Below are positions 1 to 870 of a DNA stretch of 870 nt, in pieces. Location of the stretch: assembly GCF_003334815.1 (NCBI RefSeq), contig NZ_QOWO01000114.1. One strand, given 5' to 3'. The notes below the pieces were generated by a model. That model was given only the letters and a program-made list of their open reading frames with translations. It had not been told where the DNA came from and made no database searches. Each line of letters begins with the position of its first letter. The first letter of the stretch is position 1. The position numbers and the translations under genes are program-made. The stretch comes from Escherichia coli. GTDB taxonomy: Bacteria > Pseudomonadota > Gammaproteobacteria > Enterobacterales > Enterobacteriaceae.

Positions 1-26
1 TGTAGATTCAATTGGTCAACGCAACA
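1..26. repeat. Left terminal inverted repeat (IRL) of IS30
   Basis: Seen in sequence: the 5' terminus TGTAGATTCAATTGGTCAACGCAACA is the IS30 left end as I recall it. The right-end partner (ending ...GATTGAATCTACA in the reference) is outside the window, so the inverted-repeat relationship cannot be shown here. The 26-bp extent is taken from the literature, not measured. Confidence 0.8.
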
Positions 27-49
27 GTTATGTGAAAACATGGGGTTGC

Positions 50-54
50 GGAGG
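50..54 (+). promoter_or_regulatory. Shine-Dalgarno / ribosome-binding site for the transposase gene
   Basis: Seen in sequence: GGAGG at 50-54, 8 nt upstream of the ATG at 63 (spacer TTTTTTGA). An in-frame TGA at 60-62 closes the frame immediately upstream, so ATG 63 is the first possible start. Confidence 0.65.
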
Positions 55-62
55 TTTTTTGA

Positions 63-870
63 ATGAGACGAACATTTACAGCAGAGGAAAAAGCCTCTGT
101 TTTTGAACTATGGAAGAACGGAACAGGCTTCAGTGAAATAGCGAATATCCTGGGTTCAAAACCCGGAACGATCTTCACTATGTTAAGGGATACTGGCGGC
201 ATAAAACCCCATGAGCATAAGCGGGCTGTAGCTCACCTGACACTGTCTGAGCGCGAGGAGATACGAGCTGGTTTGTCAGCCAAAATGAGCATTCGTGCGA
301 TAGCTACTGCGCTGAATCGCAGTCCTTCGACGATCTCACGTGAAGTTCAGCGTAATCGGGGCAGACGCTATTACAAAGCTGTTGATGCTAATAACCGAGC
401 CAACAGAATGGCGAAAAGGCCAAAACCGTGCTTACTGGATCAAAATTTACCATTGCGAAAGCTTGTTCTGGAAAAGCTGGAGATGAAATGGTCTCCAGAG
501 CAAATATCAGGATGGTTAAGGCGAACAAAACCACGTCAAAAAACGCTGCGAATATCACCTGAGACAATTTATAAAACGCTGTACTTTCGTAGCCGTGAAG
601 CGCTACACCACCTGAATATACAGCATCTGCGACGGTCGCATAGCCTTCGCCATGGCAGGCGTCATACCCGCAAAGGCGAAAGAGGTACGATTAACATAGT
701 GAACGGAACACCAATTCACGAACGTTCCCGAAATATCGATAACAGACGCTCTCTGGGGCATTGGGAGGGCGATTTAGTCTCAGGTACAAAAAACTCTCAT
801 ATAGCCACACTTGTAGACCGAAAATCACGTTATACGATCATCCTTAGACTCAGGGGCAAAGATTCTGTCT
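63..870 (+). CDS. insI: IS30 transposase (DDE-type, InsI), N-terminal 269 codons; 3'-partial, continues beyond the window
   Basis: Seen in sequence: ATG at 63 with upstream SD; frame open with no stop to position 869 (870 is the first base of the next codon). Translation: MRRTFTAEEKASVFELWKNGTGFSEIANILGSKPGTIFTMLRDTGGIKPHEHKRAVAHLTLSEREEIRAGLSAKMSIRAIATALNRSPSTISREVQRNRGRRYYKAVDANNRANRMAKRPKPCLLDQNLPLRKLVLEKLEMKWSPEQISGWLRRTKPRQKTLRISPETIYKTLYFRSREALHHLNIQHLRRSHSLRHGRRHTRKGERGTINIVNGTPIHERSRNIDNRRSLGHWEGDLVSGTKNSHIATLVDRKSRYTIILRLRGKDSV. Established knowledge: this matches the IS30 transposase, which has two N-terminal HTH motifs and a C-terminal DDE core. Not in the ORF track because no stop codon falls inside the window. 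Confidence 0.93.
   Translation, partial: MRRTFTAEEKASVFELWKNGTGFSEIANILGSKPGTIFTMLRDTGGIKPHEHKRAVAHLTLSEREEIRAGLSAKMSIRAIATALNRSPSTISREVQRNRGRRYYKAVDANNRANRMAKRPKPCLLDQNLPLRKLVLEKLEMKWSPEQISGWLRRTKPRQKTLRISPETIYKTLYFRSREALHHLNIQHLRRSHSLRHGRRHTRKGERGTINIVNGTPIHERSRNIDNRRSLGHWEGDLVSGTKNSHIATLVDRKSRYTIILRLRGKDSV

Follow-up and report, generated by a model that had tools for sequence, protein, structure and literature searches.

A predicted hairpin linking the left inverted repeat of IS30 to the ribosome-binding region: a plausible weak fold-back structure with counterparts across the IS30 family

The principle that a transcript entering an insertion sequence from outside can fold back at the left end of the element and limit transposase expression has been known since the 1980s. 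In IS10 (Tn10), fold-back inhibition of read-through transcripts has reportedly been demonstrated experimentally: the proximal arm, part of an inverted repeat near the left end, precedes the native start and the distal one overlies the ribosome-binding site (RBS), so that folding is restricted to externally initiated RNA, which is said to prevent fortuitous activation of the transposase. In IS50 (Tn5), a structure that reportedly forms only in read-through transcripts starting upstream of the native promoter occludes both the Shine-Dalgarno (SD) sequence and the AUG, lowering translation initiation. The left end of IS200 carries two separate elements, a terminator that acts against impinging transcription and a stem-loop that sequesters the SD, in the native mRNA as well, and unlocking the SD stem raised expression 50-fold (Ellis et al. 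2015, PMC4513863). Here we compare these systems with the left end of IS30, where the inner end of the left inverted repeat (IRL) is predicted to pair with sequence abutting the SD. A literature search revealed no prior description of IRL-RBS pairing for IS30 or the IS30 family, and we regard it as a plausible new instance of this old principle.

The stretch of DNA analyzed here (the window, 870 nt) is the left end of the classical, much-studied IS30 of Escherichia coli: it is 100 % identical to the first 870 nt of annotated IS30 copies, and of 5426 complete E. coli genomes, 3660 carry a 100 % identical copy; the annotation reads 'IS30-like element IS30 family transposase', with the coding sequence WP_001254876.1. 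A complete copy of IS30 (L081 701-1921) comprises 1221 bp and ends in TGTAGATTCAATTGGTCAACGCAACA and TGTAGATTCAATCTGTCAATGCAACA; its IRL and right inverted repeat (IRR) match at 23 of 26 positions and thus constitute 26-bp imperfect terminal inverted repeats. The single long open reading frame (ORF), that of an IS30-type DDE transposase, starts with the ATG at position 63 and matches the IS30 family transposase model of NCBIfam (NF033563, E = 1.5e-36), and the hairpin in question concerns the 62-nt leader that precedes it. Upstream of this ATG, the frame of the transposase contains two stops, TAG at 3-5 and TGA at 60-62. Frame 1, by comparison, is open from the tip of the element to the TGA at 64-66, which overlaps the start codon (AUGA), so that ribosomes translating a host ORF that enters in this frame would pass through the hairpin and terminate at the start codon; a partial 'hypothetical protein' of this type is annotated by PGAP (L081 686-766).

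According to the original prediction, CGCAAC at 20-25 is the exact reverse complement of GTTGCG at 45-50, the 3' arm ends on G50, the first G of the GGAGG at 50-54, and a T6 run at 55-60 follows, all of which can be read directly from the sequence, as can the ATG at 63-65. The loop of 19 nt that was proposed to close this stem is correct as an interval (26-44), but this interval holds a second 6-bp stem, in which U28-U33 pair with A38-G43 under a GAAA tetraloop (G34 A35 A36 A37). The outer stem is not extendable by Watson-Crick pairs at either end (A19/G51, A26/G44), and on its own it is close to what chance would produce, hence borderline evidence only: the window contains 11 exact 6-bp stems with loops of 3-30 nt, compared to 5.9 +/- 3.0 in 1000 dinucleotide shuffles, 7.8 % of which reach 11, and the probability per fixed position is about 0.7 %. 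The composite structure is a different matter. Positions 20-50 are predicted to encode an interrupted 12-bp RNA hairpin of -11.9 kcal/mol (z = -4.4), and none of 200 shuffles is equally stable; the observation behind the original prediction is real and was understated. Few 31-nt windows of the element fold as stably, but 477-498 (-12.8 kcal/mol) and 742-772 (-12.6 kcal/mol), both of which are local hairpins inside the ORF, do so too. The latter lies near the region of the antisense promoter, placed by a review at 730-760. The ORF also contains a 13-nt perfect inverted repeat, TTCACTATGTTAA / TTAACATAGTGAA at 174-186 and 691-703, with arms 504 nt apart and a rough estimate of ~0.006 expected by chance in 870 nt; since its complementarity declines in relatives, to 12, 11, 10, 9 and 7 of the 13 positions, with no compensating changes, we regard it as probably a chance feature of the coding sequence. 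No match to the covariance models of Rfam 15 was found in the window, even at E <= 10. The coordinates of the leader features are given in Table 1.

Table 1. Features of the IS30 left end, in coordinates of the 870-nt window
Feature	Position	Strand	Basis and remarks
IRL of IS30	1-26	.	23/26 match to right end; 100 % identity to annotated copies
TAGATT, putative -10 of the junction promoter	3-8	+	17 bp from TTGACA of IRR with a 2-bp spacer
AUUCAA in IRL, predicted to pair with 59-64 only in RNA entering from outside the element	6-11	+	fold of 1-90
Candidate native promoter P30A	12-41	+	weak; relaxed enumeration
GGUC, predicted weak, mostly G.U pairing with 53-56 (GGUU)	14-17	+	fold
Outer stem, 5' arm CGCAAC, inside IRL	20-25	+	sequence, fold; 21-25 GCAAC family-conserved
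Inner stem, 5' arm UUAUGU	28-33	+	minimum-energy and centroid structures
GAAA tetraloop, hairpin cap	34-37	+	fold
Inner stem, 3' arm ACAUGG	38-43	+	fold; A38 and A40 92 % conserved
Outer stem, 3' arm GUUGCG, abutting SD	45-50	+	sequence, fold
SD GGAGG, only G50 in the strong stem	50-54	+	sequence; GAGG 51-54 conserved in IS30 clade
U6 run, SD-AUG spacer	55-60	+	not conserved; terminator scan negative
UUGAAU, predicted partner of 6-11, includes A63 and U64	59-64	+	fold of 1-90
Transposase ORF, first 269 codons, running off the window	63-870	+	NF033563; WP_001254876.1
Coding segment with CCUCU 94-98, predicted to pair with 48-59 including SD in short transcripts	89-100	+	fold; not conserved

In the minimum-energy fold of RNA that begins at the tip of the element (1-90), which amounts to -19.7 kcal/mol (z = -2.3), the hairpin is accompanied by two additional helices, one between 14-17 and 53-56, mostly of G.U pairs, and one between 6-11 and 59-64 (AUUCAA/UUGAAU), the latter touching A63 and U64 of the start codon. 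The folding energy of 20-50 is far from zero, as the original prediction requires; 30-90 alone, by comparison, yields an unremarkable -6.8 kcal/mol with z = 0.07. The two outer helices differ in their standing among the relatives described below: at least 23 of 25 relatives retain pairs 6-64, 7-63 and 10-60, although this reflects conserved columns, whereas the helix 14-17/53-56 is doubtful because 20 of 25 relatives lack pair 15-55.

Which RNAs would contain the hairpin depends on where they start. A stringent consensus promoter scan of the window detected no promoter. Relaxed enumeration gave a weak candidate native promoter, P30A, with a -35 (TTGGTC/TGGTCA) at 12-18 and a TG-extended -10 at 34-41, in the apex of the hairpin, and candidates of this kind would start transcription near 46-49. 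A similar arrangement, a potential promoter whose -35 falls within IRL and whose -10 falls within an 'internal symmetrical sequence', is attributed to Dalrymple (1984) by a paper citing that work, and, as far as this citing account goes, the symmetry of the leader had been noted by Dalrymple et al. A literature search for P30A and for the start sites of insI1 returned nothing usable. With the -35 placed inside IRL, the native start should fall downstream of the 5' arm at 20-25, and we infer that it is at or beyond position ~40. A second promoter (Pjunc) is known from the literature to be strong, to form when IRR abuts IRL, and is thought to drive high transposase levels. Indeed, IRR carries a perfect outward TTGACA that, with a 2-bp spacer, is placed 17 bp from TAGATT (3-8), a near-consensus arrangement. 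The start of the junction transcript would lie near 15, and junction RNA would accordingly contain the hairpin but not 6-11.

The predicted accessibility of the RBS in these classes of transcripts gives a mixed picture. Opening of 49-65 costs 10.4 kcal/mol when the RNA starts at 1, 9.7 kcal/mol when it starts at 15 and 5.4 kcal/mol when it starts at 41; the read-through value is robust to the upstream context (10.1 +/- 1.5 over 100 random flanks). Scrambling 20-25 in silico lowers the cost to 4.7 kcal/mol, and replacing or scrambling 6-11 lowers it from 10.4 to 8.0 kcal/mol. To this extent the folding calculations favor the proposed sequestration of the RBS in read-through RNA. It does not extend to the core of the RBS: opening of 51-65, from GAGG to AUG, costs 3.4-3.8 kcal/mol in read-through, 3.2-4.0 in Pjunc-like and 2.3-5.4 in native-like transcripts, with no difference among the three classes, so that the differential rests on positions 50 and below (C49, G50). 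Preferential sequestration of the SD itself is equivocal, because by unpaired probability the SD is more open in the long RNA (~0.46) than in the short one (0.03), where it is predicted to pair with CCUCU at 94-98; this pairing, like the hairpin at 82-99, is not conserved in relatives and represents an IS30-specific SD pairing. In Pjunc-like RNA the SD core likewise stays open despite the hairpin. The stem of IS30 thus abuts the SD but does not cover it, and the region predicted to be occluded is that directly 5' of the SD, the standby site. Occlusion of a standby site can reportedly lower initiation but need not.

We consider the most likely explanation of these observations to be that the IS30 hairpin is a fold-back structure limiting the translation of transcripts initiated upstream of the native start, a reading to which we assign a probability of about 0.45. 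Native mRNA, with the -35 of its promoter in the repeat, would start 3' of the 5' arm and lack the hairpin, which would form in RNA starting further upstream, that is, in read-through from host promoters and presumably in IRR-IRL junction RNA. With the 3' arm just 5' of the SD, the effect in IS30 would be weak and would consist in the loss of a single-stranded standby region and of G50; only externally entering RNA might, in addition, have G53-G54 and A63-U64 partly masked by the helices 14-17/53-56 and 6-11/59-64. The junction transcript argues against this reading, since it would carry the hairpin although Pjunc is credited with high transposase levels.

The original prediction likened the structure to those of IS10 and IS50, and this part of it is partly supported: the analogy is apt as to the class of mechanism, of which IS30 is plausibly a weak member, but the distal arm of IS30 covers neither SD nor AUG, only G50. 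Like IS10, IS30 has an inverted repeat near the left end, and with the candidate promoters its proximal arm would precede the native start, so that, as in IS10, only RNA initiated outside would fold. IS30 differs in that its distal arm reaches no further than the first G of the SD, in its junction promoter, which would yield RNA with the stem, and in that its effect is predicted, whereas that of IS10 was reportedly shown by experiment. The likeness to IS50 would lie in a structure confined to transcripts that start upstream of the native promoter; however, in IS30 both GAGG and most of the AUG remain accessible. IS200 is similar in using left-end inverted repeats to limit transposase expression and an mRNA structure that acts at the SD, but where IS200 has two elements IS30 has one hairpin and no terminator, and this hairpin would be absent from the native mRNA, given the start site proposed above.

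The precedent of IS200 makes it natural to ask whether the stable hairpin of IS30 followed by U6 at 55-60 might be an intrinsic terminator or attenuator directed against outside transcription. Between the strong stem and the U-run lie four bases other than U (GAGG), bridged only by weak G.U pairs, a terminator scan of the window yielded 0 sites, and the U-run is absent from relatives in Kluyvera, Budvicia, Aeromonas and Rahnella that keep the hairpin (its counterparts are ATTGTT in Kluyvera, ATCGTT in Budvicia and ATTAAT in Rahnella). With a U-run that is neither conserved nor contiguous with the stem, we rejected this explanation as exceedingly improbable. A further terminator-like arrangement was noticed within codons 7-14 of the ORF, where a hairpin of CAGAGG (82-87) with CCUCUG (94-99) precedes U5 at 100-104; the terminator scan missed it because a G.U extension of the stem consumes the U-run, and it is weakened by synonymous changes in relatives. 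The open SD core of the junction transcript, together with a start near 15 that would place the hairpin 5 nt from the 5' end, could instead suggest that the hairpin stabilizes the junction-promoter mRNA against 5'-end-dependent decay and does not inhibit translation. This proposal is purely inferential, and in distant relatives (see below) the same stem buries the SD, which points to inhibition; we consider it very unlikely.

To place the leader of IS30 in the context of its family, we used a genome scan that retrieved 80 loci (L001-L080) with 97 % to 41 % amino-acid identity and compared 59 IS30-family relatives. The length of the leader is strikingly fixed over the entire range of 41-97 % identity: the distance between the IRL tip and the ATG is exactly 62 nt in each of the 27 distinct near relatives, so that these can be compared without gaps, and it is 59-62 nt in 30 of the 34 distant ones. 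In most of the 27 near relatives, the GCAA/UUGC pairing is part of the minimum-energy fold. IRL positions 7-11, 17, 21-23, 25 and 26 are invariant among them, and because these include G21, C22, A23 and C25, substitutions in the 3' arm cannot be compensated by the 5' arm. In the 3' arm, T46 and C49 rank with the better conserved columns outside the coding sequence, and a single disruptive change within 45-50 occurs in 5 of 12 IS30-clade sequences. At pair 20-50, U.G is tolerated in four lineages; an apparent compensatory change at this pair (C-G to U-A) was rejected, as the same clade has C/A, A/A and A/G. The only pair that truly covaries in the near set is 32-39 (GC 11, AU 10, GU 2, CG 1). 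When the structure derived from IS30 is imposed on the near-set alignment A1, 73.8 % is paired, as opposed to 33-42 % when the structure is slid along the alignment, but a control for column conservation already gives 72.1 %, the observed value being reached by 1 of 500 shuffles. Hairpin z-scores are about -1 or weaker in many relatives, and the strand asymmetry of folding is clear only for IS30 (-13.5 vs -8.5) and Yersinia (-15.6 vs -11.4) and is absent in most relatives. RNAalifold returned empty structures, without a consensus, on the two broad alignments A1 and A2, because the register of the pairing shifts between clades. Within the IS30 clade, then, the evidence is one of conservation only, the 5' arm being invariant.

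The distant relatives look different. In elements with 41-48 % amino-acid identity, UGCAACAC.CU (20-30) pairs with AG.GUGUUGCA, i.e. with the SD and the spacer before the ATG, and the IRL-SD folds reach -20 to -30 kcal/mol. The same GCAAC 5' arm as in IS30 is used by elements of the L055/L062 type from Betaproteobacteria and the L037 type from Paraburkholderia, which also share the position of the ATG 59-62 nt from the tip and a -10-like sequence in the loop. Their 3' arm covers the SD along with the SD-AUG spacer, and the cost of opening is ~8-9 kcal/mol above that of the truncated leader, so that IS30 looks like a shifted, weaker form of this arrangement: the complement of GCAAC is located upstream of the SD, at 45-49, in IS30 but downstream of it, at ~56-60, in the distant clades. 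Other clades pair different sequences altogether, namely CCUUCCU with AGGGAGG in Burkholderia-/Paraburkholderia-type elements, with TATTAATAT in the loop, CCCC with GGGG in Microbulbifer, and CACC with GGUG in a Pseudomonadales element.

Three kinds of family-wide tests are supportive of these pairings, if not conclusive, as their controls leave some phylogenetic dependence. First, the real 5' segment (35 nt) occludes the RBS more than 100 dinucleotide shuffles do in 18 of the 21 types of leader (sign test p = 0.0015; mean z = 1.7), with z = 2.4 for the IS30 leader, for which 4 of 100 shuffles are as high. Second, among 33 distant sequences an explicit structure leaves 70.5 % of the cells paired, compared to 66.2 +/- 1.0 % after shuffling (reached in 0/500) and 32-51 % after sliding, and the covariation score is 0.192 compared to 0.152 shuffled (1/500) and at most 0.130 slid. 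For a homogeneous subset of 18 sequences, RNAalifold predicts pairing of 22-27 with 54-59, with a change from C-G to U-A at one pair. Third, in chimeric leaders that combine each RBS region with its cognate or with 24 foreign 5' segments, the cognate segment has a mean rank of 7.5 of 25 (Wilcoxon p = 1.6e-4) and comes first in 7 of 25 cases; that of IS30, whose stem is built on the invariant GCAAC, comes only 9th of 25 for this reason. Sequence, predicted structure and its stability, recurrence in the family and co-adaptation are what this analysis shows, and as judged from the sequences the inner end of IRL appears to pair recurrently with the RBS region across the IS30 family and to be co-adapted with it.

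These comparisons bear on two further explanations. The symmetry of the leader might serve a function at the level of DNA, given that the segment 12-50 would combine a weak native promoter with the inner end of IRL, to which the transposase binds, and with subterminal enhancers of transposition; GTTGC at 45-49 would then be a second, inverted copy of GCAAC involved in autoregulation or synapsis, and the RNA pairing a by-product. Binding of the N-terminal domain of the transposase has reportedly been mapped to positions 20-26 of the inverted repeat, and an enhancer composed of repetitive elements is said to lie within 51 bp internal to IRL. The decamer GAGATAATTG, reportedly described together with this enhancer, is found directly internal to IRR (L081 1880-1895). 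With a promoter and such sites in the same DNA, conservation need not reflect RNA, and the placement of the -35 in IRL and of the -10 in the 'internal symmetrical sequence' (according to the account cited above), the candidate -10 in the hairpin apex and the invariance of GCAAC all fit this explanation, as does the fact that an inverted DNA motif would co-vary with its partner too. However, there is no inverted GCAAC within 60 nt of the right end, and motif and complement are spaced differently, by ~10 bp, in different clades, which place the complement on opposite sides of the SD; an RNA stem fits these two facts better than a DNA site of fixed geometry. The clades that pair non-motif sequences with the SD and the tolerance of U.G at 20-50 argue in the same direction. 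G.U combinations exceed A.C combinations (72:33 and 67:25), an excess that is confounded by the G-rich SD. We regard a purely DNA-level role as rather unlikely.

The other explanation is that the pairing has no function, being a chance complement beside a constrained repeat that persists in close relatives by shared ancestry. The near-random number of 6-bp stems in the window, the other 31-nt windows that fold equally well, the disruptive substitutions in relatives, the failure of RNAalifold on the broad alignments and the lack of a differential at 51-65 are what this explanation would lead one to expect. It does not readily account for the z-score of the composite hairpin, for the recurrence of IRL-RBS pairing with varied sequences and registers in 18 of 21 leader types, for the advantage of cognate 5' segments in chimeras, or for the covariation in distant clades beyond the slide controls, and we consider it improbable. 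In the fold-back reading, the hairpin of IS30 would be the version, in this lineage, of a leader design common to the family, in which the inner end of IRL would fold back onto the RBS region and dampen the translation of upstream-initiated transcripts.

A bolder version of the fold-back reading is that the leaders of the family act as a conserved, co-evolving 'start-site sensor', in which the ATG is kept ~62 nt away from the tip, and that a shift of the arm in IS30 allows three classes of transcripts to be distinguished. Folding of the inner end of IRL on the RBS region would make translation dependent on where the RNA starts: in read-through RNA the standby site would be masked, together with G53-G54 and A63-U64 through the outer helices; junction RNA starting at ~15 would have the hairpin without the 6-11 helix, leaving SD and AUG open; and native RNA would have no hairpin. 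We think this unlikely as it stands, but if true it would reconcile protection from host promoters with a burst of transposase from the circle junction.

Resistance genes are mobilized and activated by IS30 and relatives such as ISApl1 and ISAba125, and how well the transposase is insulated from host transcription sets the frequency at which these elements jump. In the case of IS30, only a small effect is predicted, and the gain is incremental. For the family, if the fold-back of IRL onto the RBS is real, the fixed length of the leader would be explained, simple mutations to raise or lower transposition would suggest themselves, and the IS30 family would count among the elements that are shielded from outside promoters by RNA structure.
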